Positions 24,528 through 53,224 of a DNA stretch of 64,000 bases are shown here, piece after piece. Numbering within the stretch: position 1 is the stretch's first letter; each line of letters begins with the position of its first letter. The translations under genes were made by a program, and so were the position numbers. Source of the stretch: an uncultured delta proteobacterium (GTDB taxonomy: Bacteria; Desulfobacterota; RBG-13-43-22); NCBI GenBank assembly GCA_963711835.1, contig CAVQFQ010000006.1:32001-96000 (forward strand), given 5' to 3'. Under the pieces are notes generated by a model, which saw only the letters and a list, made by a program, of their open reading frames with translations, was not told the DNA's origin and made no database searches.

Positions 24528-25181
24528 TTAGGTTTCTTTTAACTCTCCCTGGGAAATGGTCAGGACGTGATCGGCCAGGCGTTTGGTTTGATCGAAATCA
24601 TGGGTGGCCATGATAATCATGGTTTTGTTTTCTTTTTTCTTAGTGAGGAGGATGTCTTCAATAATCCGGGTGTTTTTTCGATCGATGGAAGCAGTGGGTT
24701 CGTCCAGAAATAGGATTTCCGGATCGACAACCAAGGCCCGGGCAATTCCCAGGCGTTGGGTTTCACCGCTGGATAGAGTCAAGGCATTTTGATTCTTCTT
24801 GTGCCCCAGTCCGACAAACTCGAGAGTCTGGTCCACCTTTCCTTTAATCTCATTTCTTTTCATCCCTCGGATGATTAACCCGTAGGCAATATTTTTGAAG
24901 ACGGTTGCATTAAAGACACCCACCTTAGGTAAAACGAGGGTTATCCGGCGCTTTAAGTGAATATCCTTGGTTACCTTTTCCTGACCTGAAAAAAAGGAAA
25001 CTTCTCCCTGATCCGGTTCCTCAAGGAGGGCGCATATTCTGAGTAGGGTGGACTTGCCGCAGCCGTTGAGCCCGATCAGGGTATAGATGCCATTGGCCCC
25101 AAAGGAATAGGAGCAGCCTCTGAGGACAGGACTTTCCTCGTAGCTTTTCCAGATCTTTGATACATCCAGGTGGAGGCTCAT
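24528..25181 (-). CDS. tupC: Tungstate ABC transporter ATPase
   Basis: GLNGCGKS, LSSGE, LFLDEPT; follows tupB. Confidence 0.85.
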   Translation of the reverse strand: MSLHLDVSKIWKSYEESPVLRGCSYSFGANGIYTLIGLNGCGKSTLLRICALLEEPDQGEVSFFSGQEKVTKDIHLKRRITLVLPKVGVFNATVFKNIAYGLIIRGMKRNEIKGKVDQTLEFVGLGHKKNQNALTLSSGETQRLGIARALVVDPEILFLDEPTASIDRKNTRIIEDILLTKKKENKTMIIMATHDFDQTKRLADHVLTISQGELKET

Positions 25182-25191
25182 CTTAAGACTC

Positions 25192-25899
25192 TCAGATTTT
25201 CTTTTTTTGAAACCAATGGAGTATAAAATTTATCGTCAGGGAGATACTCAGGAGTATAATCCCCAGAGCCAGGGCCAACTCGAAGTTCCCCTTGTCCGTT
25301 TCCAGGGCAATGGTGGTAGTCATGACCCGGGTTAAACCGGCGATATTGCCCCCGACGATCAAAATGGCCCCCACTTCCGCCATGACCCTGCCGAATCCGG
25401 CGATGACCCCCGACATGATGCCATAACGGGCTTCTTTGATAATGGTCCTGGCTACCTGAAAAGGGGTAGCTCCCAGGCTGAGAGAGGCCTGCCGAATAAT
25501 CGGATTCACATTAACCAAGGCTGAATGACATAAGGAGCAGACAATGGGAAAGGCTAAAATGGTTTGGGCAATGATCATGGCCGAAGGGGTGTAGAGCAGC
25601 CCCAGGAAGCCCAGGGGTCCGCTTCGGGAAAGGATCAGATAGACAAAAAGACCGACCACGACAGGCGGCAGGCCCATGAAGGTGTTTAATAAACTGATAA
25701 GGATTCCCCTCCCGGGAAATCGTTTTAATCCCAGAAGGGAAGCCAGGGGAAGGCCCAGGATAGTGGCCAGGACTAAAGCCAGACCTGAGACCTTCAGGGA
25801 TAATAAAATAATTCCCAGCAGTTCCGGGTTAAAATTCAAGATAAGGTGAAAGGCGGATTTAAATCCCGAGATGATGGATTCCAAATTTTCCTGGCCCAA
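25192..25899 (-). CDS. tupB: Tungstate ABC transporter permease (start uncertain)
   Basis: MGLPPVVVGL, SRSGPLG, EVGA..IVGGNI..TRVMTT. Confidence 0.92.
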   Translation of the reverse strand: MGQENLESIISGFKSAFHLILNFNPELLGIILLSLKVSGLALVLATILGLPLASLLGLKRFPGRGILISLLNTFMGLPPVVVGLFVYLILSRSGPLGFLGLLYTPSAMIIAQTILAFPIVCSLCHSALVNVNPIIRQASLSLGATPFQVARTIIKEARYGIMSGVIAGFGRVMAEVGAILIVGGNIAGLTRVMTTTIALETDKGNFELALALGIILLSISLTINFILHWFQKKKI

Positions 25900-25933: not shown

Positions 25934-25961
25934 TATATGCTATTATTGACATATAAATCAA
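25934..25961 (-). promoter_or_regulatory. Operator TATATG-N10-CATATA abutting a -35-like TTGATT (tupB promoter)
   Basis: Perfect palindromic half-sites; same motif at 33201-33246 and 44504-44549. Confidence 0.7.
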
Positions 25962-29327: not shown

Positions 29328-29335
29328 CAAAAACC

Positions 29336-30709: not shown

Positions 30710-30726
30710 CTTGCCCGTGGTGGGGC
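30660..30726 (+). mobile_element. Degenerate attC site 4
   Basis: GCCTAAC followed by an AACTGG/CCGGTT stem; right end lacks a clean GTTRRRY. Confidence 0.45.
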
Positions 30727-30760
30727 AAAATGAATTTACAGACTGTTACCTTTGCCGCGT

Positions 30761-30830
30761 CCCAGACAGGCCCTGGTTGGACGATCCAGGCAGGCTGCAC
30801 CATGTCATGGTCCGGGGAATAGAGAAGATG
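30761..30830 (+). mobile_element. N-terminal remnant of a RAYT/Y1-type transposase
   Basis: PRQA(frameshift)LDDPGRLHHVMVRGIEK matches the RAYT start PRxARLDxPGxLHHVxxRGIE. Confidence 0.65.
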
Positions 30831-30831: not shown

Positions 30832-31659
30832 TTATTTCCCTGCGGCGTTAGGAATGAACAAGGGATTCCCGTTCTTATCCTTAAAGGCCCCGATGGCCTG
30901 CTGGCCTTCCTTGGAGACCAGCCAGTTGGCGAACTCCATGGCCTCCTTGTATTTGACGTGTTTGTGCTTCTCGGGATTCACAGACATAACGGCATACTGA
31001 TTGAAAAGAGCCGGATCCCCTTCCAGGACAATGATCATGTCCAGTTTGTCTTTATCCTTGGTGGCCAACCAGGTCCCTCGATCGGTCAAGGTATAGGCCC
31101 GCTTCTCATTGGCGATCCGCTGGGTCTTTTCCATGCCCTGGCCGACTTCGAGATACCAGGGTTTCCCTTTGGGGTCTATTCCTGTAGCTGCCCATAGGGC
31201 AAGTTCTTTGGTATTCGTACCCGACTTATCTCCCCGGGAGACAAAAGGGAGGGAATTTTCGGCGATCTTGCGGAAGGCCTCTCCGGCCAGCTTGGTTCCT
31301 TTAATTTTGGCCGGATCATTGGGAGGGCCGATGATCACAAAGTCGTTGTACATAACTTCCTGCCGGTTGACAAAGTAGCCTTCAGCCACAGCCTTCAGTT
31401 CCAATTCCTTAGCATGGACAAAGACCACATCGGCGTCGCCCCGTTTGCCGATCTCGATGGAGGCCCCGGTCCCTACGGCCACCACATCCACCTTGATACC
31501 GGTCTTCTTTTCAAAGATGGGCAGGATATAATCAAACAGCCCGGAGTTCTGGGTGCTGGTGGTGGAAGCACAGCGGATGCGGGTTTGGGCATAAAGGTTG
31601 CCAACAGAAACCGTGAAAATTATCCCTATTATCAAAAGCATTAACCCGAGTCTTTTCAT
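30832..31659 (-). CDS. tupA: Tungstate-binding protein TupA (exported)
   Basis: Signal peptide; ASTTSTQNSGL, VGTG, SRGDKSGT, YTLTDRGTW. Confidence 0.93.
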   Translation of the reverse strand: MKRLGLMLLIIGIIFTVSVGNLYAQTRIRCASTTSTQNSGLFDYILPIFEKKTGIKVDVVAVGTGASIEIGKRGDADVVFVHAKELELKAVAEGYFVNRQEVMYNDFVIIGPPNDPAKIKGTKLAGEAFRKIAENSLPFVSRGDKSGTNTKELALWAATGIDPKGKPWYLEVGQGMEKTQRIANEKRAYTLTDRGTWLATKDKDKLDMIIVLEGDPALFNQYAVMSVNPEKHKHVKYKEAMEFANWLVSKEGQQAIGAFKDKNGNPLFIPNAAGK

Positions 31660-31772: not shown

Positions 31773-33179
31773 TTACCAGACAATCTCAAACCGGGCCAAG
31801 ATCCCATCTTCGGAATCCAGTTTTTTACCGCTTACATCGATCTTCTGGTCGAAGTTGGTACGGTAATAATTAACCATGATTCTAAACATATCGTTGGGAT
31901 ACCAGTTCAGCCCAAAGGTATAGCCGCTGGCCCGATTGGTATATAGTCTGGGGTCCACAAAACCCTTATCCAGGAGTGCCTTGTCCATATCCAGCCATTC
32001 ATAACGGGCCAAGAGTTGGAAGGCCCCGTAGCCGCCCTTACCAAACACGAAGGGCTTTTTAGGACTGATCTGCTGGGGCAGCCCATTCCTCCAGGGTTCA
32101 TGCTCACCCGTTAAAAACCAGCCCAGGGATACATAACCCGCATTGCCGCTAAAGCTTCCCGTTTTGGTGCCGTTGCGAAGATCATTCAATTGCAGGTTCA
32201 CGTATTCACCTTTAAGGGATACCGGACCGACCAGCCAGGCCAGTTCGCCTCCCAATCGGGTACGGTTGCCGTCCTGGGCGACCGTATCCTGAAATTGCAT
32301 GAAGGTTGTCCCGGCGGCGGTTTTAAAGGCATTTTTCCACCAGTCGGTGCTGGGTTTAGCGGTATGCTCTATCCCGGTGGTAAAGGCCCCGCCGATATGA
32401 AAGTCTTTAAGGAAGGCGTTATCCAACTTGGAAAAAGGTGCCAGGGTGATTCTTCCCGCCAGGTCCTTCTGGTCATCCACGTCACCGGCCGTATTGAGTT
32501 TGACGCCGTTAAAAACACCCAGTTGATAATACAGGAGATCCTTGGCGACATTTCCGTGAATCATCATCCCGATATCGCGAGAAGGCGCCCAGTTGTCGGC
32601 TAAAGAACGTTCTACAAAATCGATCCAGTTGTCGGAGTGCAGTTCCTCCATTAAGAAGGGGACCTTGAACTGCCCGAACATAAACTGGGCATAAGGGACA
32701 TAGCGGATGTTCATGAAGGCGTCATTAAGCCGGGGGTTCCCCTGGCCGAATTCCGGTTCGACCATAAAATCATAATAGTTATATAAGGTTCCGATTAGGG
32801 CCAGCCGGGCGCGCTTGATGAAAAAAGAATCATTATTGGGATTGTCTCCCAGGTACTGTTTGTAGTCGGCATGGAGCCGGCCTGAAATCCGGATTTTGCT
32901 GGCCCCATCGGCTGATTCGATGGAAAAGCCCCTTTTAAAATCGACCTTGGCCCCTTCGGTCGATTTTTTCTCGGCCGCCGCCCGTAATTTTGCTACTTCG
33001 GCATCTTCGGCCTCAACCTCTTTTTTAAGTTCCTGGTATTTTTCCTGACTGACGATCTTGCTTTCCAAGAGAATATCCAGGATTTTTTCGTTGACCGATT
33101 TGGCTTGGGAAATCGAGGCACTTCCCCAGAGAAATACCAGGCCCATTACGATAGCAATCCAACTTTTTTTGATACACAT
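31773..33179 (-). CDS. OprO/OprP-family anion-selective porin
   Basis: Signal peptide; IKRARL, GQFKVPF..E, FVERS, GLNWY; C-terminal Trp. Confidence 0.85.
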   Translation of the reverse strand: MCIKKSWIAIVMGLVFLWGSASISQAKSVNEKILDILLESKIVSQEKYQELKKEVEAEDAEVAKLRAAAEKKSTEGAKVDFKRGFSIESADGASKIRISGRLHADYKQYLGDNPNNDSFFIKRARLALIGTLYNYYDFMVEPEFGQGNPRLNDAFMNIRYVPYAQFMFGQFKVPFLMEELHSDNWIDFVERSLADNWAPSRDIGMMIHGNVAKDLLYYQLGVFNGVKLNTAGDVDDQKDLAGRITLAPFSKLDNAFLKDFHIGGAFTTGIEHTAKPSTDWWKNAFKTAAGTTFMQFQDTVAQDGNRTRLGGELAWLVGPVSLKGEYVNLQLNDLRNGTKTGSFSGNAGYVSLGWFLTGEHEPWRNGLPQQISPKKPFVFGKGGYGAFQLLARYEWLDMDKALLDKGFVDPRLYTNRASGYTFGLNWYPNDMFRIMVNYYRTNFDQKIDVSGKKLDSEDGILARFEIVW

Positions 33180-33200: not shown

Positions 33201-33246
33201 ATTATGTCATAAGAAGCACATATGTCATTAATTACATATATGTCAA
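33201..33246 (-). promoter_or_regulatory. Tandem operators (TATG-N10-CATA, 18-bp period) abutting -35 TTGACA (porin-tupA promoter)
   Basis: ATTATG-N10-CACATA overlapping CATATG-N10-CATATA, then TGTCAA. Confidence 0.72.
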
Positions 33247-33339: not shown

Positions 33340-34203
33340 CTATTTAAGAGACTGTGCCTTCCAGGTCGCGTCATGATAAAGCGCTTCTCCATAGACATCC
33401 TTGCCGAAATCTCTGATGAGCTGCTGGCCCCGGTCCGAGGCCAAAAATGTTAAAAATTTAGCTCCTATCTCCGCCCCGGGTGTCGCCCCGGAAGGCTGGC
33501 ACAATCCGTGGTAGGCGTTGATCAGAAAAGGGTCTCCCTGATAGAGGATTTTGAAATGGGGCAAACCGGCCTTTTCCATCACCCAGGTGCTGCTATCGGT
33601 CAGGAAATAACCCCGTTCATCATAGGCCTTTTTCAGGGAGACCCCCATAAAATCATGGGTTATTCGGTAGTAATTCCCATGGGGTTGAACCCCGGCTTGG
33701 CGCCAAATAGCCATTTCTTTTCGGTGGGTCCCGGAATCATCTCCTCTGGAAAAAAATAGAGCTTTTTTGATGACAATCCGCCTGAAGGCTTCCGCCGCAC
33801 TGGCGGCCCCGGCCGTTTGGGCCGGGTCCTCGGAAGGGCCGACCAGGTAAAATTCATTAAAACCCAGCAAGGTTCTTTTCGCAGCCCAGCCTTCTTGAAC
33901 CGCCTTTTCCTCAGCGGCGGGGGAATGAACCAGAATGACATCCACTTTTTTGTTTTGGAGGAGTTTGAAGGACTCCCCGGAACCGGCTTTCACCCAGCAG
34001 AGGGAACTGCCGGTCTCCCGGGAAAAATCCTCTCCTAAGATACGGAGCAATCCCAATTCACCGGGGCTTCCAGTGGCTACAGAGAAAACAAGACTGCCTT
34101 TCCCATAAAGCTGGCTGCACCCGGTTGTCGCAATCGCTTCCGAAAAACAAATGGACACCGTCAGGAGAAGAGAAAAGAGCGAATAGCAAATCGCCTTTTT
34201 CAT
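33340..34203 (-). CDS. TupA-like binding protein, variant motif
   Basis: Signal peptide; ATGSPGELGL in place of the STTS motif; SRGDDSGT, LTDSSTW. Confidence 0.82.
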   Translation of the reverse strand: MKKAICYSLFSLLLTVSICFSEAIATTGCSQLYGKGSLVFSVATGSPGELGLLRILGEDFSRETGSSLCWVKAGSGESFKLLQNKKVDVILVHSPAAEEKAVQEGWAAKRTLLGFNEFYLVGPSEDPAQTAGAASAAEAFRRIVIKKALFFSRGDDSGTHRKEMAIWRQAGVQPHGNYYRITHDFMGVSLKKAYDERGYFLTDSSTWVMEKAGLPHFKILYQGDPFLINAYHGLCQPSGATPGAEIGAKFLTFLASDRGQQLIRDFGKDVYGEALYHDATWKAQSLK

Positions 34204-34209: not shown

Positions 34210-34992
34210 CTATTTCTTCCCCTTAATCACCGAGGGTATGGCGTCGGGATAAAAAAGATTGGTGCCGTGCTTTTTATAGCCGGCGATCAATTTCTGCCCT
34301 TCCTGGGAAGTCACAAAAGCGATAAATTCCATGGCCGCCAGGTAATTCATCCTGGGGAATTTGTCCGGGTTCACGGCGATGACGCTATAATTATTGCGCA
34401 GCAGCGGATCGCCTTTAAAAAGGACTTTCAAACCCAATTTGGCTTCGTACTTCAGGAAGGTCCCCATGTCCGTCAGGGTGTAGGCGCCCTGTCGGTCCGC
34501 TTGGATCAGGGTATCGGCCATGTTGGCCCCGGCTTCCTGATACCAGGTTTTTCCCTTGGGATTGATACCGGCATCGTCCCACAAGTCCATTTCCCGGATG
34601 TTGGTACCGGAATCGTCCCCTCGAGAAAAAAAGGCGTTTCCCTTTTCGGCAATTTCTTCGAAGGCCTCAATGGCGGAGTGTGTTTTTTTTACTTTCGCCG
34701 GATCCTTGGCTGGTCCCACGATGGCAAATTCGTTATGCATGACGGCCCGCCGGTTAACCCCATAACCCTCAGCCACAAATTTTTCCTCCCGGAAAGGATC
34801 ATGCACGAAAAGAAGGTCTGCCTCTCCCTTTTTGGCCACCCGGATCGCCTTTCCCGTACCTACGGCAATGACTTCGACCTTGGCTTGAACCTTGGAAAAT
34901 TTTTCGTAGGCCGGGATTAGAATGTCAAAAAGCCCTGAATTTTGAGTGCTGGTGGTCGAAGCAATGATCAACCTGTTTTTACCTTTAACCAT
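34210..34992 (-). CDS. TupA-like protein lacking a signal peptide
   Basis: Strong RBS AAGGAGG before MVKGKNRLIIASTTSTQNSGL; no hydrophobic leader. Confidence 0.85.
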   Translation of the reverse strand: MVKGKNRLIIASTTSTQNSGLFDILIPAYEKFSKVQAKVEVIAVGTGKAIRVAKKGEADLLFVHDPFREEKFVAEGYGVNRRAVMHNEFAIVGPAKDPAKVKKTHSAIEAFEEIAEKGNAFFSRGDDSGTNIREMDLWDDAGINPKGKTWYQEAGANMADTLIQADRQGAYTLTDMGTFLKYEAKLGLKVLFKGDPLLRNNYSVIAVNPDKFPRMNYLAAMEFIAFVTSQEGQKLIAGYKKHGTNLFYPDAIPSVIKGKK

Positions 34993-35021
34993 GTTAATTT
35001 TCCTCCTTTATTTTGTCTTTT

Positions 35022-35064
35022 AAGACCTTAATTAAATAGTTACTATTGAATAGGGTCTTGTCAA
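35022..35064 (-). promoter_or_regulatory. 38-bp AT-rich inverted repeat abutting TTGACA
   Basis: AAGACCTTAATTAAATAGT-T-ACTATTGAATAGGGTCTT then GTCAA. Confidence 0.5.
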
Positions 35065-35076
35065 GACAGAGGCCGA

Positions 35077-36003
35077 TTATTTTCTCACCCAAGGATCTTC
35101 CCCGTGCTGTTTGCGAATAAAATCCTGAAAGGTCGCCGTCCCTTCCTTCCGGGCCTGGCCGGCGGTCAGGAATTTTCCAACCATGAGCATATGCATTTCC
35201 GGGGGGAGGTCATTAAACTGGACTTCTTTTAAAAAACCCCCGACCGTGTTGCGGATCACCTTCTGCTTTTCCCGGTCGCCGGCATAGGTGACGACGGCCA
35301 CCGGTGTGTCTTTGGGGTAATGTTTCTTGAGCTGGGTGAAAAGTTTGGGATAGTCCAGATGCATGGTATAGAAGATCATACCGGTTTTGTGGGTCATCAA
35401 TTCCTTGTTTTTGTCTTTCCGGCCGGGCCAATCGGTCATGGTCAGGATCACCGAACTGGTGTCCCAGCCGTAAGGGGGGCTCATTTTCACGGCGGCACTG
35501 GCGGCCTGAAAGGCCCCTATCCCCGGGATGACTTCGGAAGGAAAGTCCTTGGGCAGCATCTCCAGGTAATAGGTCGTTCCATACATCATAGGATCGCCCC
35601 ACTGAAGCGCGGCCACGGTCTTGCCTTGTTCCACGGCCTTTTTGATCCGGTTAATTATTTCCTCCCGGGCCTGGGCGTTCTGTATCGCCTTGGCTTTTTT
35701 CCCCGGGTCTTTTATTGTCTCCGGGTCGATTCCATAATAGACCCGGGAAAAATGCCCCAGGTACCAGACTTCCTTGCCCTCGATCATGGGTTTCCAGGCT
35801 TCAAGATCGCCCCTTTCCTCCAGGAGGACGATATCGGTCTTCTTGAGCACCTCTTGGCCGCGGACAGTGATCAGGTCCGGCATGGTTCCCATGCCGACGA
35901 TATAGAATTTACCGGCTTCCGCCCAGGCTGAGCCGGCCAAAACAACCACGGTTAACAAAACAACTGCGACCAGAGTCGCCCAATTTTTGGTGCCTTTAAT
36001 CAT
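35077..36003 (-). CDS. Exported tetrapyrrole-methylase-like protein (CobM/CbiF-like)
   Basis: Sec-pathway signal peptide ending AWA; FYIVGMG..PDLITVRG, LQWGDPMMYG, VIPGIGAFQAASA. Confidence 0.82.
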   Translation of the reverse strand: MIKGTKNWATLVAVVLLTVVVLAGSAWAEAGKFYIVGMGTMPDLITVRGQEVLKKTDIVLLEERGDLEAWKPMIEGKEVWYLGHFSRVYYGIDPETIKDPGKKAKAIQNAQAREEIINRIKKAVEQGKTVAALQWGDPMMYGTTYYLEMLPKDFPSEVIPGIGAFQAASAAVKMSPPYGWDTSSVILTMTDWPGRKDKNKELMTHKTGMIFYTMHLDYPKLFTQLKKHYPKDTPVAVVTYAGDREKQKVIRNTVGGFLKEVQFNDLPPEMHMLMVGKFLTAGQARKEGTATFQDFIRKQHGEDPWVRK

Positions 36004-36024
36004 TACCTCTTTCCTTTCTCAATG

Positions 36025-36789
36025 TTAATTAAGATGATAGACAATGGGAAGAACGATCTGGGCTTCTATGGGAGGGCGGGGAAAAGGCTCGCTTTCCTTA
36101 ACGGTCTCCAGGGCCGTTCTATCCAGAAGCTCGTATCCCGAACTTTGCATCACCTTAGCCTCTTTAATCGTTCCGTTCAGATTGATAATAAAAGAAACCA
36201 GCACCTTGCCCTGCCAACCCAGGCGGCGGGCCTGGGAGGGATAACTGACGTTCCTGAGTATCTTTTCCCGAATATAGGCAAAATGTTCACTCAAATACTT
36301 TGTTTTTGCCTTTTCCATTCCCTCCTTCCCCATTCCAACCCCGGCCCCAGTCCCTCCGGCAGTACCCAGGGCGGCCCTGGAAGACCCGGAAGCATCGGCA
36401 GCCCCCGGTTGCCGCCCTTCCAATCCTCTTCCGGGCTCCATTTCTTTCAGTTCCGGGACGTTGATCGGGACGGTCAGGTCCGAGGTGGAATGAAGGGCCG
36501 TGGGGGTGTTATCCAAAGGCTTAGGAGATTCGGATCTGACCGAGGGCCTTTCTTCCTGAACCAAAACCCCTGGCGGGGTGAGCGAAGGCTGTTTCAATTC
36601 TACTTTCTGGCGAACGGGGGCGTTAGGGGGGCTTGATTGGGGGATAGGAGGGACTGGTTTTTCCAAACTGAAGTCGATCACCGTGAGGTGGTTCTTTTTT
36701 GCCGCCAGGCTGCTGAGACCCAGGATCCCAAATAGGAAAATGGCATGGATCAGGAAAGAAACCTGGATGGCTTTGGTTTGCGGTTTCAT
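36025..36789 (-). CDS. tonB: Energy transducer TonB
   Basis: N-terminal TM with SxxxH, Pro-rich linker, YPSQARRLGWQGKV..SSG..LD. Confidence 0.92.
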   Translation of the reverse strand: MKPQTKAIQVSFLIHAIFLFGILGLSSLAAKKNHLTVIDFSLEKPVPPIPQSSPPNAPVRQKVELKQPSLTPPGVLVQEERPSVRSESPKPLDNTPTALHSTSDLTVPINVPELKEMEPGRGLEGRQPGAADASGSSRAALGTAGGTGAGVGMGKEGMEKAKTKYLSEHFAYIREKILRNVSYPSQARRLGWQGKVLVSFIINLNGTIKEAKVMQSSGYELLDRTALETVKESEPFPRPPIEAQIVLPIVYHLN

Positions 36790-37166
36790 TTCCGTTCTTC
36801 GGTCTGGAGGCTGACCCTTTTAAATCCCATGGTTTTAATGATGTCCAGGACTTCGACAAAACCCTGGAGGGCAATATTCCGGTCGGCCCGGATCAAAATG
36901 GGGATATTCCGGTTGTGGCCGTCCATGGCTGCCTTTAATTCCGATAAAGAAATCGGTTTGGTGTTTAAAAAGATGTTTCCCTGGCGGTCGATTTCAACGG
37001 TCTGGGTGCGAAGCATTTCCCCCTGGCTCTTGACCACTTTAGGCAAGTCTATGGGGATCATTCCGGTGGCGATGAACGACGACGTAGTCAGGACAATGGT
37101 CAGGAGCACCAGCATGACATCCACCAGGGGGATGACATTGATGTAATCAAACTCCTTTTCTTCCAT
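36786..37166 (-). CDS. exbD: ExbD
   Basis: [19 protein letters not shown]. Confidence 0.93.
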
Positions 37167-37581
37167 TGCGGATCTCCCAATCCATCATCAACACTTTGAC
37201 CTTGCGCAGCAGGAAGTTATAGAGCGCGACCGAGGGGATGGCCACCAAAAGACCCACCGCCGTGGCCTTCAAGGCCAGGGCCAGGCCGACCATGATTTTC
37301 CCGGTGTCCATGAAACCTTCCAACCCGATGGTGTAAAAGGTGAGCATGATGCCCAAGACCGTCCCCAGCAAGCCGATGTAGGGCGCATTGCTGCCGATGG
37401 TGGCGATCAGGTGGAGCTTCCGGGTTAATTCTTTTTCCAGGCTTGGCCGGTCCGTAAATTGATCCAGCCTGATCTGGCGATACACCAAATACCGCTCGAT
37501 GGCGATCCCGATGGAAACGACGCTCATCAGGATCAATAATCCGATGATGCCATAATCTATGGCGATTTTCAGCCAATCCAT
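37147..37581 (-). CDS. exbB: ExbB (short form)
   Basis: [32 protein letters not shown]. Confidence 0.93.
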
Positions 37582-37695
37582 AGTTGATCCAGATAGGGGG
37601 GTCCGGGGCTATGAACGGCACAAAAAAGGTTCACCGGTCATAGCCCCGCCCAATTCCTATTAAAATATTCGGATTTTTTGGAGATAGTGCTTAGT

Positions 37696-39772
37696 TTAAA
37701 ATTTCCCGGTCAACCCTACCCAGAAATTTCGACCTGGTCCGGGAAAACCGTATTCCTGCTCATAGTTGATATCAAAGATGTTGTTCACTGCGAAATAAAC
37801 TTCAAAACACTTAAAAATGGGCTGGGTGGCCTTGAAGTTGGTCAGGAAATAATCCCCGGTCTTCAAGGTGGCCAAGGTCCGGTTTTGTGGGGTCGGAACC
37901 TGGGAAAGAGCCTCTCCGACATAAAGGCCGATCAGATCCAGCCGCGTCTTGGCCCGGGGGATGGTGTACTGGATACCCAGGTCCGCCTTATGCTTTGGAG
38001 AAAAAGGAACGTCGTCGCTAACCCGGCCGGCGCTGTCATTGCGGGATTCATTGTAGGTATAGTCGGCCCTTAAAAGCAGTCCTTCCATGGGATAAATAGA
38101 ACCGCCTAATTCAAAACCCGTTCGATTCACGTGGCCGTAATTTTGATAATTGCCGAGGATACCGGGGGCATCGCGGGAAATCAAATCGCTGATGTCGTGA
38201 TAGAACAGGGAGAGCTCAACCTGTCCCATCTTGCCGATGGCCTGGTTGACGCCGATGGTGTAATTGATGCTTTTTTCCGAGGACAAGTTGGTATTCCCAC
38301 CACGGGTGGCATAAAGCTGCCCCAGGGTGGGGAAGCGGCTTTTCTGGGCTATCGAACCAAAGAGTCTGGTGGCCTCCAGGATCCGATAGTTTATCCCCAA
38401 CATGGGATTGAATGCGCTGGTATTCGGGGTGGGGTTGGATGTCTGGCTTACGAAATTCCCGGTACTGGAATTGGTTACATTCTTCTGGGCCTGGGTAACC
38501 CCGAACCAGTCATAGCTGATCCCGCCGACCAGGGAAAGATTCTTGACTAATGTGAATTCGTCTTCCAGACCCAGGGATCCGGTCCGGGAGACGGATTCGG
38601 CAAAGGGCAGATAGGTGTCATCTCGCTCTTTATGGGAGTCTTCTTTGTAATGAAAGGACATGCGCAGGGTGTTCCATTTTACGGGCTGGAAATCCATAAA
38701 AAAAGACCCGCCCATAAAATAGTCCTCGTAGCGACTGGTGGCGATTTGCTTGGTAAAGCTCTGGTCGGAGTACGACACATAATCATCATTATGGTGATGA
38801 TAAAAAAGTTTGGCCTTAAGGGCAAACTGGTCGGTCAGCCGGTGGGCCCCATCCAGATCGACTCCCCAGTCTTCGTAATTTAGGATCCGGGCAAAATTGG
38901 AGAAGGCTGGCCGGGTGGTGATAACCTGATTGGAATCCGTGGAGGGGGGGTATCCTTTATCCCGGTTCAGGTAATGGAAGTTGACAAAAAATTCAGAATC
39001 CTTTTTTGGGGTCGCCCCGAATTTGGCCCAGAAATTCTTGCTGGTCAAATCCGAGTTGTTCCGGGTCCCGCCGTCCTCGAAAACGGCCTGGCTGGTCCCC
39101 CCGGGTGTGCGTCTGAGGGTCCCCTTTCTGGCTTTATAATCATCGGACAGATTCCAGCCGTTGGAATCCTGGAAAGAGGCATTCAGCCACCAGTTCCAAA
39201 TCCCCGCCTTCATACCATGGGTGGCCGAGAGCCGATAGGTTTGATTTTCCCCGAACTCAATCGTGGCGCTGGTAAAAGGCTTTTCAGACGGTTTTTTGGT
39301 AACAATGTTGATTACCCCAACCAGGGCATTGGGGCCGTAAAGAACCGAGGCAGCCCCTTTGGTGATTTCGATCTTGGCAATGTTGTCGGTCGGGATCTGG
39401 TTCAGATCCAACTTGCCGCCATTGGTTTCATAGTAAGGAACTCCATCGATCAGGATTAGGGCTTGGGTCTGATCAAACCCACGAATGGAGACATTGGGTT
39501 CGTTCTTCCGACCAATGGTAACCCGGACACCCGGGGCATAGGTCAGGGCCTCGGCCACGGTTTTGCTGTTGGTGGCCTGGATATCCTCAGCGGTGATCTC
39601 GGTGATGGTGGCTACTTCCCGGACGCCGGATTTTTGCTCTGAAACCACGATTTCGCCCAGGGTGTAGATCTCGAAATCCTTGGCCTGCGATTCCGAAGCG
39701 AACCAGCCAGGACCACACCCCAACCAAAGAAACAACCAGGGCCATTCCAATGATCCTTTTTCCTTCCTTCAT
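37696..39772 (-). CDS. TonB-dependent receptor with an apparent single-base frameshift in the signal-peptide region (~39718-39721)
   Basis: TonB box EIVVS, plug IRGF..LIDG, KGAASVLYG, NIFD..Y..GRNF..F end; RBS AGGAGG precedes ATG 39772, which is out of frame with the body. Confidence 0.85.
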
Positions 39773-39787
39773 TTTTTCCTCCTCCTT

Positions 39788-41101
39788 TTATTTATGTTTT
39801 TTATTTTTCCTTGACCAGAAGAAATAAAACGGCAACCCCGTCAAGGTGATTAAAACCCCTAACAGCGAAGTGCCCGGTTTGTCTCCTGAAATCTGCCAGG
39901 CGATCCAGCCGTAGGCCGCCACAAAAACCAGGGGCGTCAGGGGGAATCCCCAGGTTCGGTAGGCTCTGAGCTGGTTGGGTTGTTTAACCCTGAGGACCAG
40001 ATGAGCCAACCCGGTCGCCATGGAGGCCAGGAGCATGATTAAAACCACATAGCCCAGAAGCTGATCAAAACTTCCCCAGACGACCATCAAGGCCGCCAGC
40101 AGCCCCTGGATCAAAATCGATCCATAAGGGGTCTTATAGCGGGGATGAAGTTTTTTCAGGAAAGACCAAAAGATTCTATCCTCGGCCATGGCATAAAAAA
40201 TCCGGGAACAGGCCAGGATGGTGGCATTGATGCTGGAGGCAATGGCCAGTAGGATGGCCAGGGAGATCATCCCGGCAAAGGTGCTGTTAAACAGGGTGGT
40301 AGCCGCCAATTGGCCCACGTTAACCACACCCTTCAGACTCGAAATGGGGACCGCGTATAAATAGGTTATATTGACCAGGGTATAAAGGACGGTAACTATC
40401 AAAGTCCCCCAGAGAAGCGAGCGGGGGACGTTTCTTTCCGGGTCCTTGACTTCACTGCCCACATAGGTGGAGGCGAACCAGCCGCTGTAGGTAAAAATAA
40501 CGGCGATCATGGGCGAGGCCAGCATCTTGGACCAGGGGATCGTTCCTCCCGGGCCGCCGGCGAAATGCTGCCAGCTTCCATTGCCGAAAAGCAGCCCCCA
40601 AAATATTAAAATACCCAGCAGGGCCAGGGAGCCCAGGGTGAAGAAATCCTGGGTGGTGCCGCCCCAACGGATTCCCCGGTAATTGACCCAGGTAAACAGG
40701 GCGATGACCACCATGGCCGCCGGCTTTCCGGCACCCGGCAAGGCTGCCGGAAGGACCGGTTTTAGATAAGTGGCCAGGGCCAACGACAGGGCGGCAATGG
40801 AACCGGGGATAATAATCCAAAAGTTGACCCAACCCAACAGAAACCCGGCCCAGGGCCCGTAAGCCTCCTTCAGGAACTGGTAATCACCCCCCGACCTGGG
40901 AAACAAGCCTGCCAGTTCGGCATAGGTCAGGGCCCCGCAAAGGGTCAGCAAGCCCCCAATAATCCAGATGCCGATAAACCAGAAAGGCTGAGGCAGTTCA
41001 CCGGCCAGGAAGCCGCTGGTGGTAAAAATACCGGCGCCGACTACATTGCCTACCACCAGTAGAATGGCATCCCCTAAGGTGAGGCTTCTTTTAAGCTGCA
41101 A
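39788..41101 (-). CDS. APC-family amino acid permease
   Basis: VGAGIF, YAELAGLFPRSGGDYQFL, YSGW, EVKDPERNVP. Confidence 0.9.
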   Translation of the reverse strand: MQLKRSLTLGDAILLVVGNVVGAGIFTTSGFLAGELPQPFWFIGIWIIGGLLTLCGALTYAELAGLFPRSGGDYQFLKEAYGPWAGFLLGWVNFWIIIPGSIAALSLALATYLKPVLPAALPGAGKPAAMVVIALFTWVNYRGIRWGGTTQDFFTLGSLALLGILIFWGLLFGNGSWQHFAGGPGGTIPWSKMLASPMIAVIFTYSGWFASTYVGSEVKDPERNVPRSLLWGTLIVTVLYTLVNITYLYAVPISSLKGVVNVGQLAATTLFNSTFAGMISLAILLAIASSINATILACSRIFYAMAEDRIFWSFLKKLHPRYKTPYGSILIQGLLAALMVVWGSFDQLLGYVVLIMLLASMATGLAHLVLRVKQPNQLRAYRTWGFPLTPLVFVAAYGWIAWQISGDKPGTSLLGVLITLTGLPFYFFWSRKNKKHK

Positions 41102-41164
41102 GGATGGGTTTCCTTTTTCTCATGAGTTCATTTTTTTAAAAAATAAAATGGTGCCCTCTTTCTT

Positions 41165-42943
41165 TTAATGGTGCCGATCCAGGGAGCTAGCCTCCAGGCA
41201 AGTCCCGATGTAGATCATCCCCAGCCATTTTTCTTTTTCGTCCCAGGTCAGGGAAAGGGCCTGGTCCAATTGGGTTTTAAGCAGCCGCTCGCTATCGGAA
41301 TAGCCCACCCGATAGGCGAAATAAACCGGCGTTTTCGGCGGGTAAACGGTGCCCAGCAGATCTACCAGATTTTTTAATTCTTTCAGTCCCATGAAGAGAG
41401 CCAGGGTATCGCCTTTTTCCAGCGCTGCCTTGAGCAAGGCGGGGTTGTCCTTAAGCGCCCAGAAAGTGGAAAGAATAATCGAGCCCCCTTTGCAGGCCAT
41501 TTCTTTGCCGATCAGGGCATTGGCGGCATTGAAAGCGCTGACGCCGGGAATAATTTCCTTCTGGCTGTCGTCAAACTGAGCGGCGATATGCCGAAGGCTT
41601 CCGTAAATGGAAGGATCCCCATATTCCAGGAGGGCCACGTTTTTGCCCTGCTTGAGTTCCGCTTTAATCAATGCTGCCGCCTCTTCCAACTTTCCCTGGA
41701 GCAGCCGTTTTTTCTCTTCGGCAGACAACTTGGCCAGTTCTTTTCCATAGATGGGTTCCGGCATCAGGTATTTGAAGGGATCAAAAAGGACAGGGCGCTC
41801 CCCGATATAGGAGGCGAACCTTTTTTTGATGTCATCGGAACAGATAAAGACATCGGCCCGGCCTATGGCCGATAGCGCTTTCCGGGTCAACAGATCCGGG
41901 TCGGCACAGCCCACACTGATCAGCATGACCTTGGGCTCCCGGCGCAAAGAGATTACCTCGATCCGGGAAACGGCCTTGACCCAGCGGTCGGCGGAAAGGT
42001 CGTCCGGTATGACCAGCTTGAATTTGCCGTCCGCTTTGATGGGCCGACCATCCAGGCGATCGGCAATTACGATCCGCCGGCCCAGAGGGTTAAGTAAAAG
42101 TTCCCCAGCCGAGATCAGCGACCGGTAGCCGTCCGGTGCGGAAATCACCAGGGCCGAATCGAGGGCCGGAGTAATGCCGGCCTTTTTGAGTAATTCCATT
42201 AACGGCACACCCTCAAGAAGGAGGTGGCCATGATAGCCCTTGCCGTCTCCAAAGACCTTCCCCGGCACCTCCAGACGGGGATAAGAAGATAAATCACTAA
42301 GGGACAGGATTTGTTTCCCGTTCTGAACAATTGAAAGGGCCGGGGCGAAGAGTTCCGGGACTTTCTTGGTGGGCAGTTTCAGGTGCAGGTCGATTACTTC
42401 AATACTGGTGATGTTCTCCAGGGATCGCTCGGTGTAGAAATCGTTGGCGACCACCAGCTTCGGAAATCCCACACTTCTCTTCAATGGATCATACCAGATC
42501 CGGTAAACCTCCGGTTTGTGGCAGAGGTTGCAGTCCCTAAAAGGCATGATGGGCGCTGCCTGGGTAGCAATCACGATTTCAGCCGGATTGCGGTAAAAGA
42601 CCTCGCCCCAGGACAGGACCGTTTGTTTTCCCTCCCGGTTACGGATCACAATGGCCAGATCCAGGGGTTTAATAAAAGAGGATTCTCCTTTTTGGATCAC
42701 GGCCGTTTCCAGCAATTCTTTCAAAGGCACCCCGCGGTAGTTGAAAACGCCGTGGAATTTTTTGTCCTGGTTCAGTTCATTGAGACGAACCTGGACCGAT
42801 TGAAAGCGGGCCAGGTCATTCAAGCTTAATTGAAGCGGCTGTTTGACCGCACCAATGATGCTTAAACCTTCCGACGAAACCGCCCAGGACGGCACGGTGT
42901 ATAAAAAAACCCCCAGAAAAAAAATGGCCCACCTCTTTTTCAT
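41165..42943 (-). CDS. Exported fusion protein: two molybdopterin-oxidoreductase-like repeats, one CxxCH, C-terminal CobM-like methylase domain
   Basis: Signal peptide ending SWA; repeats with GVPLxELL; APDGY...DRWVK; CNLCH at 42518-42532; ISVGCADPDLLT, YGDPSIYG, IPGVSAFNAANA. Confidence 0.78.
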   Translation of the reverse strand: MKKRWAIFFLGVFLYTVPSWAVSSEGLSIIGAVKQPLQLSLNDLARFQSVQVRLNELNQDKKFHGVFNYRGVPLKELLETAVIQKGESSFIKPLDLAIVIRNREGKQTVLSWGEVFYRNPAEIVIATQAAPIMPFRDCNLCHKPEVYRIWYDPLKRSVGFPKLVVANDFYTERSLENITSIEVIDLHLKLPTKKVPELFAPALSIVQNGKQILSLSDLSSYPRLEVPGKVFGDGKGYHGHLLLEGVPLMELLKKAGITPALDSALVISAPDGYRSLISAGELLLNPLGRRIVIADRLDGRPIKADGKFKLVIPDDLSADRWVKAVSRIEVISLRREPKVMLISVGCADPDLLTRKALSAIGRADVFICSDDIKKRFASYIGERPVLFDPFKYLMPEPIYGKELAKLSAEEKKRLLQGKLEEAAALIKAELKQGKNVALLEYGDPSIYGSLRHIAAQFDDSQKEIIPGVSAFNAANALIGKEMACKGGSIILSTFWALKDNPALLKAALEKGDTLALFMGLKELKNLVDLLGTVYPPKTPVYFAYRVGYSDSERLLKTQLDQALSLTWDEKEKWLGMIYIGTCLEASSLDRHH

Positions 42944-42959
42944 TTGATTTGTTTCCTCC

Positions 42960-43733
42960 TTAAACAGATTTTCGCTGCGGAAAATACCAGAGCATGAACA
43001 AGATCAAGAAGGCGAACCCCCAGAAAATAAGGTTTCTACCGGGGTCCTCCTTAATAATGATTTTTAGTTCCGGCTGGGGATTGTTACTCCGGGACATATC
43101 CAGATGGAAGGTAAGACCTTGCCAGGACAATGGTTCCAGGAATCGGATTTGCCGTTCGGTCGTGCTTCCGGCGGAACTAACCCTCAGGATCACCGAACAC
43201 TGTCTAAGCATCCCCCTAATTGGGGCCGGTGAGGCATACCGTTCACAGGCTTGAGAAATCACCTCCGCTTGTGATGAACCAGGCAGGTTGATCTGGGTTC
43301 CCGGTTTGGCTGGAATAATTTGGTTGTAACCGGCCACCAGACTGATCCCATGGCCGACCAGAATGACCAGGAAGCCCAAATGGATTAAAGAGGGGCTGAT
43401 TCTGATTGAGAACGACTTGAAACCGAGCTGTCTGCGAAGGGGCCAGAGAATAATCAGACGCTTTAGGGCACAGATCAGGGTGTTGGCGCCTAAAAAAAAC
43501 AGAAGAAGCAGTAACGTTCCCAGCCACCAGATCCGACCGGATTGCCGAAGGCCGACCCGCCGGACCCATTCCTGAATCAGCAGGTGATTTAAGGTATTGA
43601 ATAAGGAAAAATTGAATTTAAGGTAGTAGGAACCGATGCCTAAATTGAGCGAGATCAATAACAGCAACCAGAAATTGACCCAGACGTTGCCGCAGAAATC
43701 CCAAATTTTTTTCAACATGTCCCTACCCTCCAA
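42960..43733 (-). CDS. ResB/CcsB-like cytochrome c biogenesis membrane protein
   Basis: LGANTLIC, SLIHLGFLVILVGH, PLSWQG, DPG before the last TM; overlaps ccsA. Confidence 0.7.
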   Translation of the reverse strand: MEGRDMLKKIWDFCGNVWVNFWLLLLISLNLGIGSYYLKFNFSLFNTLNHLLIQEWVRRVGLRQSGRIWWLGTLLLLLFFLGANTLICALKRLIILWPLRRQLGFKSFSIRISPSLIHLGFLVILVGHGISLVAGYNQIIPAKPGTQINLPGSSQAEVISQACERYASPAPIRGMLRQCSVILRVSSAGSTTERQIRFLEPLSWQGLTFHLDMSRSNNPQPELKIIIKEDPGRNLIFWGFAFLILFMLWYFPQRKSV

Positions 43734-44475
43734 TCCGGGGGATAGCGGCCTCTGTAAACAATCCCCCGTAACCGTAGAGGAGGACCAGGAAAAGGCCGAA
43801 CAAGGAAAAGCGGGCCTCGGTCTTCAGATTCCAGATTGACCGGTAGCGTAAGTGAAGCAGGGCGGCGTAGAAGCACCAGAGGGAAGCGGACTGCAGGTGC
43901 CGGTTGCTCCAATGAAGGGGCGTGGCCCAACCCAAATAGGCCCAGTAAGCGCCTAACACCTGGGCAATGCTGTAGAAGATAAACCCCCAAACGAGGAAGG
44001 AATGGAAGATTCGCGCCGGCTCCCGCTTAATTAAGTTGAGAATGGCCAGGGAGCTTCCGGCGATAAAACAAGCCTGGCCCAGGACTTCAAACATAAAAAA
44101 TAATACCGAAAAAATTGTTTGGGTTTTTGGCCCTGGAGGAATAACCCCCGTTGGAAAAAGAAGGGTGGCCAGGGAAAGAATAACGATCGGGATCAACAGA
44201 CCTTCGCTTAAGGAAGCATCCTTGGAAAAGTAGGTAAGCCCCAGACTGATCAGTGCCAGGCACCAGGGTAAAAAAAAGACGGTTTCAAAAAGGGGGTTAG
44301 GGATCCAGATCCCGATAAGCAGGCTCCGGTTAATGATAAAAAGGGTATGAAGCGTAAAACCGAGTCCAAGCAAAAACAGCATGATCCTCGGCCGGCGCCA
44401 TAGCCGGGCCAGCAGTCCTGCTCCGTAAAGCCCGATGACTATCGGAAAAATTTGGATACCTATTCCTGAGGTCAT
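43723..44475 (-). CDS. CcsA/ResC-like cytochrome c assembly protein
   Basis: GAYWAYLGWATPLHW (WWD-like) and YAALLH heme-handling motifs. Confidence 0.8.
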   Translation of the reverse strand: MTSGIGIQIFPIVIGLYGAGLLARLWRRPRIMLFLLGLGFTLHTLFIINRSLLIGIWIPNPLFETVFFLPWCLALISLGLTYFSKDASLSEGLLIPIVILSLATLLFPTGVIPPGPKTQTIFSVLFFMFEVLGQACFIAGSSLAILNLIKREPARIFHSFLVWGFIFYSIAQVLGAYWAYLGWATPLHWSNRHLQSASLWCFYAALLHLRYRSIWNLKTEARFSLFGLFLVLLYGYGGLFTEAAIPRIGG

Positions 44476-44503: not shown

Positions 44504-44549
44504 GTTATGCTTTTCTTGGCATATATGGCAAGAATGACATATAAGTCAA
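44504..44549 (-). promoter_or_regulatory. Tandem operators (TATG-N10-CATA, 18-bp period) abutting -35 TTGACT (ccsA operon promoter)
   Basis: GTTATG-N10-CATATA overlapping TATATG-N10-CATATA, then AGTCAA. Confidence 0.75.
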
Positions 44550-44705: not shown

Positions 44706-45447
44706 ATGGTGAAAAAGCAGGATGAAACAGGAACGGATTACCTTCCTGAAAGCGCCCTGGCCATCGTGGCCCATCCCGATGATATCGAATTCACCTGCGC
44801 CGGGACGTTGGCCCTCTGGGCTGGAAAGGACGCCCGGGTTGGCTATGTCCTTTGCACCAGCGGCGATGCCGGGATCGATGACCCTGAGATTTCAAAGGCC
44901 CAGGCCGCTCAAATCCGAGAGAAAGAACAGTCGGCCGCTGCCGATAAGATCGGGGTAAAGGAAGTGGTCTTTCTCAGGGAACCCGACGGCCTGCTCCAGG
45001 CCACACTGGCCTTGCGGAAAAAGATTGTCCGGGAGATCCGGCGATTCCGTCCCGAGGTGGTCATGTGCTGGGACCCGACCGTGGTCTGGATCAATGACCG
45101 GATGATCAATCACCCGGACCACCGGGCCGCCGCTTTAGCGGCCCTGGATGCCGTTTTCCCGGCGGCCGGTCAGCCCCATCTCTATGAAGATCTCGAAGCC
45201 GAGGGGTTTCTTCCTCATAAACCCCATAAACTCTATGTGGTAAGCTGGGGTCCGGCCGACCTTTATGTGAATATTGAAGAAACCCTGCCCCTCAAAATCG
45301 CTGCCGTAAAAAAGCATACCAGCCAATTCAAGAATTGGGATCCGGAAAGTGTTTATAAAGGAGATGGCCTCCCAAGCCGGTCGGGAGAAAGGGTTGAAAT
45401 TCGCCGAGGCCTTCCGGGTCATTTCCCTGACCGAATACCCATCCTGA
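44706..45447 (+). CDS. PIG-L/LmbE deacetylase family; frameshift near 45347
   Basis: AHPDD, RxxEQ and HPDH motifs; the natural end (EMASQAGREKGLKFAEAFR...*) is in the next frame. Confidence 0.82.
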
Positions 45448-45566
45448 CTTACCGATACCCTTATATAATACACCCTCTCCGGATTAATCCCGCCTATAGC
45501 CGGCCCCATTATCATCATAATTACCTATTTGACTCATAGATTATCTTAATCTATCTTGCTAACGTT

Positions 45567-46091
45567 ATGGGAGAGAAGAAAGGGAGCCGCCGGGTCTCCA
45601 ACTGGAAGGGCGGCTTTCCCGGTCGAGGACGTATTTCATGGATTACTCTGGCCGTCCGTGTGGTCTTGGGCGGAATTTTTATTTATGCTGGGACCATGAA
45701 ATTGCTGGACCCGAAGGCCTTTGCCCGGATTATTTCCCAATATGACTTGGTTCCGGAAAGCCTTTTGCCTGTCATAGCCATAGGTTTACCCGGCTTGGAG
45801 GTCATAGCGGGAATCGGACTTATCTGGGCCTTTCCCGGTAGTCTGGGGGTAATTTCCAGCCTCCTGATGCTTTTCGTCGGGGTGCTCTGGTACGGCATTC
45901 TAAAGGACTTGGATGTGGATTGCGGCTGTTTTTCAGCCGAAGAACTTGCAAAACAGGGAGACCTCTGGCAGGCCTTTTACCGGGATTTCCTGATGATCGG
46001 GGCAGCTCTTTTCCTGTTTGTTTCCCGGTGGATGCAGTCGGGTCGCAATAAAAGCTTGCCCCTGTGGGCAAAAATAAAACTCACCTTGTAA
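45567..46091 (+). CDS. MauE/DoxX-family membrane protein
   Basis: RVVLGGIFIYAG..K, E..AG, DCGCF. Confidence 0.88.
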   Translation: MGEKKGSRRVSNWKGGFPGRGRISWITLAVRVVLGGIFIYAGTMKLLDPKAFARIISQYDLVPESLLPVIAIGLPGLEVIAGIGLIWAFPGSLGVISSLLMLFVGVLWYGILKDLDVDCGCFSAEELAKQGDLWQAFYRDFLMIGAALFLFVSRWMQSGRNKSLPLWAKIKLTL

Positions 46092-46106
46092 GGGGGAAAT
46101 TGAAAG

Positions 46107-46619
46107 ATGTTGAAGAAGAGAATTGGATTGATTGGTTTTTTGGGGATTTTTCTGGTGATGGGTTTTGCTACCAATGGATTAGCCGCCTGGGGCAGCAAGG
46201 AAATGGATACGGAAAAGATTGCGCTGAACTTCGCCCGGGAGGTGGAACGGGGCGGATATAAGATTGTTTCCACGGAAGAATTAAAGGGTTGGATCGACCA
46301 GAAGAAAGAGCTGCTGATTGTCGATACCATGCCTTTTGAAGATAGTTATAAAAAGCAGCATGTGCCGGGGGCGGTTCAAATGGAATTCCCCATCCCGGAA
46401 ATGACCCAACTGGACGACAAGAAGAAAGCGGATATCGAAAAACTGCTGGGACCCAACAAAGACCGTCTGATCGTCATCTATTGCGGGTTTACCAAATGCA
46501 CCCGCAGCCACAACGGGGCCATGTGGGCCGTTAAAATGGGCTATAAGAATGTTTACCGCTATCCCGGCGGCATCAAGGCCTGGGATGAAGCGGGATACCC
46601 GGTTGAAAAAGTTAAATAA
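46107..46619 (+). CDS. Exported rhodanese-domain protein
   Basis: Signal peptide; HVPGA, YCGFTKCTRS, YPGGIKAW. Confidence 0.9.
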   Translation: MLKKRIGLIGFLGIFLVMGFATNGLAAWGSKEMDTEKIALNFAREVERGGYKIVSTEELKGWIDQKKELLIVDTMPFEDSYKKQHVPGAVQMEFPIPEMTQLDDKKKADIEKLLGPNKDRLIVIYCGFTKCTRSHNGAMWAVKMGYKNVYRYPGGIKAWDEAGYPVEKVK

Positions 46620-46700
46620 TTTTCACATGATGATACCTTCCAATCCCCTCCGGATTCTGAGCGCACCGGTTCAACAGGACCGGAGGGGAAGCTTTGTACT

Positions 46701-47369
46701 ATGCTGTCACGTTTATTGACCATCCTATCGGTCGGGGTGGTCGCAACCCTGATCATTGCCTCGGCCGGTTCAGGACCTTTATCGGCCCAGGACCTGAACC
46801 CCTTTCCAACGAAGGCCCACCCTCTTTTAGCGGACGTTAAAAACAAGCGGGTTTTAATCTACGCCGAAGTCAATCCTAAAAATCAGGGCAATTCCAACCC
46901 ACATTGGTGCGTTGTTTTTCAGGGCGGGAAGCTGAAGGACAAGGCCATCCTACAGGCCTTCTGCACGCCACAGGAATTCCACGACGCCCTATTGCAAATC
47001 GGCGCCAGGCCCGGAAACAACCTGACCCTCCGCAGTTCCGGGGAGGTCATTGGGGGCGATGAACTCCAGGTTTCGGTCACCTGGCCCGGCCTTTCCCGGC
47101 CCCTGGGGTTGTCCGATATCCTGGACGATTCCTCCGGGAAGGGCTTCCGGATCCGGTTCGGCGGCAACCGGCAGCGGGCCATCGAAGAAAGCACCGGCTG
47201 CATCACCTGCCTGGAAAGCTGCCCCATTGGCATCACCAGCAACGCCGCTTATCCGGCCATCGGCGGCTTTAAAAGGCTGATGTCGCCCAATTCGCAGTTT
47301 AAATTAAAGAGCGAAAAAGTCCCCCGCCAGGGGGGCCTGATTCTGATTTACAGCCTGAAATCAAATTAA
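46701..47369 (+). CDS. YdjY-domain exported protein
   Basis: GARPGNNL, FGGN, TGCITCLESCPIGITSN. Confidence 0.78.
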   Translation: MLSRLLTILSVGVVATLIIASAGSGPLSAQDLNPFPTKAHPLLADVKNKRVLIYAEVNPKNQGNSNPHWCVVFQGGKLKDKAILQAFCTPQEFHDALLQIGARPGNNLTLRSSGEVIGGDELQVSVTWPGLSRPLGLSDILDDSSGKGFRIRFGGNRQRAIEESTGCITCLESCPIGITSNAAYPAIGGFKRLMSPNSQFKLKSEKVPRQGGLILIYSLKSN

Positions 47370-53223: not shown

Positions 53224-53224
53224 A

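Follow-up and report, generated by a model that had tools for sequence, protein, structure and literature searches.

In siderophore uptake of the FpvA–FpvG and FoxA–FoxB kind, which is TonB-dependent and frees the metal in the periplasm, a receptor, a processing step, a heme membrane protein and a secondary permease work together, and comparable components are predicted for the gene cluster described here. The cluster lies in a 64,000-nucleotide stretch of contig CAVQFQ010000006.1 (assembly GCA_963711835.1, positions 32,001 to 96,000 of the forward strand) from an uncultured delta proteobacterium of the phylum Desulfobacterota; we refer to this whole stretch as the window and count positions from its first letter. 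An initial annotation described nine closely packed genes (35077..44475) as an operon for an apparently undescribed periplasmic import-and-process pathway, built around an exported heme-c/CobM-like fusion protein. All nine open reading frames (ORFs) are on the minus strand with intergenic gaps of −20 to 114 bp, and the ORFs, gaps and Pfam matches agree with the packing and the named domains, the resB-like gene being supported through its relatives. The gene set is conserved elsewhere: of 401 genomes sampled from the phylum, 51 gave matches, as did the linkage loci described below. Sequence comparison indicates that the cluster is two modules joined: a clade of exported CbiF-like proteins with S-adenosylmethionine (SAM) motifs, linked to a TonB-dependent receptor and an APC-family permease, and a cysteine-less tandem sulfite-oxidase (SUOX)-like domain accompanied by a degenerate CcsBA. 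We tentatively read this combination as a possible system for unloading a molybdenum or tungsten (Mo/W) chelate or metallopterin in the periplasm by methylation, for which the permease would supply SAM.

The CbiF-like domain occurs in two cluster proteins. The first is a 592-amino-acid (aa) fusion (41165..42943, minus strand) with a signal peptide, two PF00174 sulfite-oxidase-like repeats that lack the Mo cysteine and, at residues 338–561, a PF00590 domain (E 7e-39); the second is a stand-alone signal-peptide protein (35077..36003, minus strand; PF00590) of the same clade. The AlphaFold model of the fusion has a pLDDT of 92 and a pTM of 0.88, and its Foldseek matches are tetrapyrrole methylases at ~21% identity (TM to target ~0.8). 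Searching with the stand-alone protein gave 176 representatives at E 1e-10 or better. In a tree of 88 domains, where the fusion was left out and represented by five close homologues, all 58 signal-flagged proteins fall in one group of 72 (support 91/73), whose sister is a group identified from its sequences as CbiF/CobM (support 100/99). Signal peptides were judged by eye and with a hydrophobicity heuristic, by which export-signal-like N-termini occur throughout the family, in keeping with the exported location first proposed. Ten members that start directly at the methylase domain are nested inside the exported group, which points to a secondary loss of export in these proteins. The SAM motifs GDP, PG and a late G are kept in at least 90% of 66 aligned members and line up with those of CbiF (1CBF); they are equally well kept in exported and cytoplasmic members. 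The two cluster methylases score 78 and 91 bits against TIGR01465, below its cut-off of 259.65, and the genome (89% complete) has only one other PF00590 gene, of 562 aa; the cluster proteins are therefore, as judged from gene content, not B12 pathway enzymes. Of 401 genomes of the phylum, 44 match the methylase profile, and methylase loci were also met in records of Beta-, Gamma- and Alphaproteobacteria, Campylobacterota, Chlorobium and Planctomycetota. The exported clade is not named by any Pfam or NCBIfam model. At the least, hundreds of proteins that carry the annotation ‘precorrin-4 methylase’ (651 matches) are misannotated.

Linkage was scored for 110 repeat-bearing ORFs from 40 genome and 77 metagenome loci, of which the 56 with at least 2.5 kb on both sides were counted and the rest dropped; five of 80 named loci were read by hand. 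An APC permease lies within 6 kb of 31/42 proteins with a methylase domain compared with 1/14 without one, counts that come from related loci, including near-duplicates, and are thus not independent, the statistics ignoring kinship. In the lone permease-positive locus without a methylase domain (L040), the methylase is the next gene. A receptor is present in 43 of the 56 loci and tonB/exbB in 34, and 20 further methylase loci contain a permease (10), DUF4198 (11) and a receptor (at least 13). In Thauera butanivorans and Aliarcobacter vitoriensis the receptor, a signal-peptide methylase and the permease stand in a row, and three methylase copies without a signal peptide (Marinobacterium, Vibrio and Advenella) have neither receptor nor APC permease among the neighbours scanned. 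Two of these cytoplasmic members have other transporters nearby: the Vibrio copy (L240:7455-12360) lies with a MarR gene and two ABC exporter-fold transporters, and the Marinobacterium copy (L200:6527-8780) with an MFS transporter.

In the window, the permease (39788..41101, PF13520) gives a weak match to the S-methylmethionine permease model, and the receptor (37696..39772) scores far below the cut-offs for BtuB and hemin receptors. Pfam matches identify exbB (37147..37581), exbD (36786..37166) and tonB (36025..36789), all on the minus strand. The ribosome-binding site and ATG of the receptor gene (true start 39772) are out of frame with the receptor body through one extra base at 39736 in the present assembly, and two runs of relatives have one contig apiece that lacks this base; the receptor copy thus appears to carry an assembly error or a recent lesion at 39736. 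Elsewhere, PCPU selenoprotein TonB receptors lie directly beside an exported methylase in six loci (L062, L064, L168, L169, L170 and L172), one of them confirmed above the cut-off, and a receptor gene with a different motif, Cys-Met-Pro-UGA, occurs at L065:896-2389. Exported nucleoside-hydrolase-like proteins, two of them fused to FmdE, lie beside the methylase in three loci (L067:8045-9190, L169:7950-9440 and L170:7976-9469) and could remove S-adenosylhomocysteine (SAH). Other neighbours across the loci include DUF4198, DUF364, FmdE and FecB/CD, with cbiM/Q-like genes near some.

The linkage of methylase, permease and receptor also fits with the CbiF-like domain being a non-catalytic periplasmic binding protein, which would pass a chelate or cofactor from the receptor to the APC permease for import as a whole, the metal being freed in the cytoplasm. 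Such a protein could work without SAM in the periplasm, and the domain has varied exported fusion partners (DUF4198, the repeats and itself), as is common for binding modules; the cytoplasmic Vibrio copy adjoins a pair of transporters. However, the SAM motifs are kept to the same degree inside and outside the cytoplasm, the three TupA-like proteins described below suggest free oxyanion in the periplasm, and APC permeases usually operate without binding proteins. We consider this explanation somewhat unlikely, although it comes close behind the methylation reading. The trio and the metal regulons would be equally compatible with periplasmic synthesis or completion of a metallophore by the methylase and permease, from a precursor and SAM exported by the permease, for release and re-import in loaded form via the receptor; no recurring biosynthetic or outer-membrane export genes were found among the neighbours, and we regard this as improbable.

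The second module comprises the N-terminal repeats of the fusion. PF00174 matches in two stretches (E 1e-10; 41.6 bits, cut-off 24), Atlas clusters give the same assignment, and the repeats are 32% identical to each other (E 3e-14), a tandem duplication. The initial annotation of two repeats, one CNLCH and a C-terminal tetrapyrrole methylase thus describes the protein well. The CNLCH (42518..42532, residues 138–142, minus strand) is an optional insert in repeat 1. We found 651 relatives of the fusion among 8000 candidates, and in a survey of the best 120 plus the query the CxxCH is present in 105/121 proteins and missing from 16/121, with a clean 7-residue deletion in all seven motif-less proteins that were aligned. 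Its conservation, proposed as a check at the outset, holds for most of the family and fails where the motif is cleanly deleted. By eye, full-length relatives begin with a basic, hydrophobic, Sec-like stretch. The Mo cysteine of SorA/YedY aligns with a cysteine-free NEV stretch of repeat 1 in weak matches (E 0.06–0.13), and repeat 2 has no cysteine at all; it has an invariant D271-G272-Y273, an invariant R320 followed by a variable W321, and an invariant glycine-rich loop. The repeats are also found alone, and in one locus (L057:8703-10496) a TupA-like domain and the tandem SUOX-like domain form one protein between a receptor and modE-tupABC. PMC11194511 describes PruR as an exported SUOX fold without the cysteine in which a tyrosine and a tryptophan hold the pterin between them, with an N102/Y104/W160 pocket, a PW motif and a partner, DcpA, as hallmarks. 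We tentatively mapped repeat 2 to this pocket by motif alone (DGY, arginine and variable tryptophan), and no DcpA-like neighbour recurs among the scanned loci.

The membrane pair upstream of the fusion consists of a degenerate CcsA-like protein (43723..44475, PF01578, E 2e-15) and a short ResB/CcsB-like protein of ~255 aa (42960..43733), both on the minus strand. The ResB-like ORF itself has no Pfam match, and weak matches to PF05140 are seen in nine of ten aligned relatives (best E 7e-4). We compared 40 full CcsA-like copies, against the canonical CcsA of the genome, and 43 ResB-like copies. What we take to be the transmembrane His is kept in 40/40 CcsA-like copies, and the presumed periplasmic ligands are gone: the first is found at its column in 0/40, seven copies having a His within two columns, and the second in 0/40. 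The WDPKE core, which reads WSNRH in the present protein, has lost D and E in all 40 copies, and a His replaces the E of this WWD loop in 33/40. In the ResB-like copies, His118, which we take as the transmembrane His of this subunit, and His128 are each present in 42/43. The absence of the periplasmic heme-ligation His from all copies makes a role as dedicated heme lyase unlikely for the CcsA-like protein. A canonical CcsB (454 aa) and CcsA pair is encoded elsewhere in the genome, together with 14 multiheme ORFs.

The initial view placed a heme-c protein at the centre of the system and gave it a maturation pair of ‘its own’, that is, a c-type cytochrome enzyme matured by a dedicated CcsA/ResB. 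The prevalence of CxxCH among close homologues and the adjacency of the pair in the present genome favour this view, and the new WWD-loop His and the second ResB His could replace the lost ligands. The expected co-variation is nevertheless reversed: ccsA lies within 6 kb of 9/11 CxxCH-less proteins and of only 16/45 CxxCH proteins (absent from 2/11 and 29/45), the opposite of what a dedicated lyase would give. With both periplasmic columns empty and a canonical pair available, we find a dedicated lyase very improbable, the least likely of the explanations considered. The pair instead goes with the repeats and not with the methylase, since ccsA/resB lie beside 8/14 repeat proteins without the methylase domain and 17/42 with it; among 61 genomes, 14 have the short ResB, 15 the repeats and 11 both. 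By analogy with MsrQ for MsrP, we infer that the degenerate CcsBA may be a heme-b membrane partner of the repeats, the alternative being a rearranged lyase.

The cluster extends past the nine genes into a set of oxyanion-uptake-like genes, all on the minus strand: two tupA-like genes (34210..34992 and 33340..34203), an OprO/OprP-type anion porin (31773..33179; Pfam) and a third tupA-like gene (30832..31659), followed 5 kb further on, past a patch of toxin–antitoxin-like small genes, by tupB-like permease and tupC-like ATPase genes (24528..25899), which share 68% and 55% identity with the genes next to tupA in L057. NF041772 is the only NCBIfam match of the three TupA-like proteins (227, 126 and 257 bits in the order given, cut-off 400), and a relative of the second is the one fused to the sulfite-oxidase-like domain in L057. 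Read from sequence, the intervening region (26100-30800) holds small HicAB/HigA/BrnA-like and uncharacterised ORFs. An internal promoter is suggested by a TTGACA hexamer within 34993-35076, upstream of the first tupA-like gene.

A ModE-type palindrome, TATGTC-N6-GACATA, lies upstream of the ccsA (44524..44541), porin (33221..33238) and tupB (25936..25953) genes, the first copy overlapping a TTGAC −35-like hexamer and having a weaker second copy just downstream. The window has four matches compared with 0.78 expected, and 1/100 shuffles reaches four; the matrix was built from the three sites before ccsA, porin and tupB and is circular for those three. It also scores a site before an AFOR_C (tungsten aldehyde-oxidoreductase-family) gene (C6:104157), which ranks sixth behind two likely chance matches; the genome has eight AFOR_C matches. 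Related loci (690 kb) give 23 matches compared with 4.6 in shuffles, with strong matches directly upstream of the module in nine of them and, in two, also before an 889-aa gene read by eye as a xanthine-dehydrogenase-family enzyme. These data support the motif by which the initial annotation had tied the operon to tungstate uptake. The 6-bp spacing of the core is that of the ModE consensus in PMC545781, and the outer ATCG flanks are not kept. According to PMC545781 and PMC2700814, the Geobacter modDABC site shares the half-site TTATGTC, and single-domain ModE proteins are noted in deltaproteobacteria. The genome encodes a 109-aa ModE-like protein with the DNA-binding domain only, its gene overlapping an fdhE-like gene, and a search of the genome for a TOBE domain gave no match; this protein is presumably the regulator of the operator. 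Within 9 kb, tup/mod genes are found in 15 of 34 loci.

The operator also bears on the possibility that the cargo is a tetrapyrrole (heme, siroheme, a corrinoid or a Ni-tetrapyrrole) bound or remodelled by the CbiF fold, with the degenerate CcsBA as a tetrapyrrole channel. The nearest solved relatives of the domain are precorrin-4 methyltransferases, and the genome, having besides the cluster pair only the 562-aa PF00590 gene, likely cannot make B12; two genomes have heme-receptor-like receptors, and cbiM/Q-like genes lie near some loci. However, the tup genes and the tungsten enzyme gene share the ModE-type operator with the cluster, no cobalamin riboswitch was found in the window or in four related loci, ccsA/resB accompany the repeats rather than the methylase, and the cluster receptor scores far under the BtuB and hemin cut-offs. 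A tetrapyrrole cargo is therefore unlikely in our view, and the B12 salvage raised by the initial annotation is weakly supported at best.

The receptor, the export signals and the permease linkage agree with a periplasmic import-and-process pathway, of which methylation is the version we tentatively favour. Under Mo/W limitation, ModE-type operator control would allow expression, and the receptor would import a Mo/W chelate (metallophore or metallopterin) to be held by the sulfite-oxidase-like repeats. The CbiF-like domains would then methylate the ligand in the periplasm with SAM likely shuttled by the APC permease; once freed, the oxyanion would go to the TupA-like proteins and from there to TupBC. 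The degenerate CcsBA may serve as a heme-b conduit giving electrons or heme to the repeats, and the CxxCH heme as an optional relay, for whose maturation the housekeeping Ccs system would serve. Known APC transporters include carriers of S-methylmethionine and SAM (MmuP and yeast Sam3), and S-methylation occurs in the breakdown of the molybdenum cofactor to urothione. We infer the cargo, the catalysis and the direction of the permease in this scheme.

Several observations count against periplasmic methylation. We know of no periplasmic SAM pool, and the kept SAM motifs may be structural or bind an adenosyl-type cargo. The exported clade is not strongly supported, the linkage loci are kin, and 11/42 fusions have no permease within 6 kb. 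The Thauera and Aliarcobacter receptors speak for a tetrapyrrole cargo, as their nearest scores are to heme receptors (257 and 255 bits, cut-off 317). The repeats gave no direct sequence match to PruR structures, the TupA and ModE labels fall below NCBIfam cut-offs, and 19/34 loci have no tup/mod genes within 9 kb. The genome also has moaC, so pterin salvage is not obligatory. The broader proposition, which we hold to be doubtful, is that at least three phyla methylate TonB-imported metal chelates or metallopterins in the periplasm, and so set the metal free, using exported class III methyltransferases and an APC carrier of SAM/SAH. In Mo/W-dependent anaerobes this machinery would be combined with a tandem SUOX domain that binds pterins and a CcsBA rebuilt as a heme-b electron conduit.

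Further genes were noted around the cluster. Divergent from the first operator (44706-47369) are genes for a PIG-L deacetylase, whose end looks frameshifted, a MauE/DoxX protein, an exported rhodanese and a YdjY-domain protein, which may share the box. A CCG-domain gene with a truncated N-terminus (48022-48993), which resembles a family of selenoprotein neighbours, forms a selenium/arsenic neighbourhood with an AhpD-like gene, an ArsS radical SAM gene, selD and a selenium LysR regulator (52848-57055), where UGA read-through is possible. System I ccm genes on another contig of the genome (C5, ~19000-26000) look alphaproteobacterial and are likely bin contamination (6.4% reported).

Full-text literature searches, covering passages of papers, turned up neither a description of the module, in line with the novelty first proposed, nor a TonB-dependent route of Mo/W uptake. 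TonB uptake with periplasmic processing is of a known kind; for an exported methylase fold with a permease we could find no counterpart, under either leading explanation. If methylation is correct, it would be the first known case of SAM-dependent methylation in the periplasm. A clade that is exported, keeps its SAM motifs and has its own permease would imply either that methylation also takes place beyond the cytoplasm or that a further class of binding protein exists, and in the His-rearranged CcsBA the cytochrome c synthase scaffold would have been put to a new use. The system bears on how anaerobes rich in W/Mo enzymes obtain these metals where they are chelated, as in sulfidic or organic-rich sediments. 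The wider family has cultured hosts, among them Thauera butanivorans, Aliarcobacter vitoriensis, Thermodesulfobacterium and Thiorhodococcus.

Finally, we compared the cluster with known systems. The methylases resemble the CbiF/CobM precorrin-4 C11-methyltransferases (PF00590; PDB 1CBF and 4E16) in their class III methyltransferase fold, SAM motifs and sister position in the tree, but differ in having signal peptides, ~21% identity, scores of 78–91 bits against a cut-off of 260, linkage to a receptor and an APC permease, and no cob/cbi pathway in the present genome. The repeats share with PruR (PMC11194511) an exported SUOX-like fold without the Mo cysteine; they differ in being tandem, in the optional CxxCH, in the fusion to a methylase or TupA, and in the presence of uptake genes where PruR has a diguanylate cyclase. 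Like MsrPQ (YedYZ) and SorAB, the cluster pairs a SUOX-family domain in the periplasm with a heme membrane protein or a c-type heme, yet it lacks the Mo cysteine, the N-terminus is by inspection of Sec type rather than Tat type, and the membrane partner is derived from CcsBA. That partner retains the transmembrane His of both subunits and the tryptophan-rich loop outline of System II CcsBA, but has no periplasmic His pair, an altered WDPKE, a half-length CcsB and no dependence on a CxxCH neighbour. The TupA-like proteins, the ABC permease and ATPase and the 6-bp-spaced palindrome recall TupABC/ModABC and ModE; the cluster differs from these in also having a TonB system and proteins for processing in the periplasm, in its TATGTC/GACATA box variant and in a regulator without TOBE domains. 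Compared with the siderophore systems, it differs in its Mo/W regulon and in a methylase fold in place of the known release proteins.

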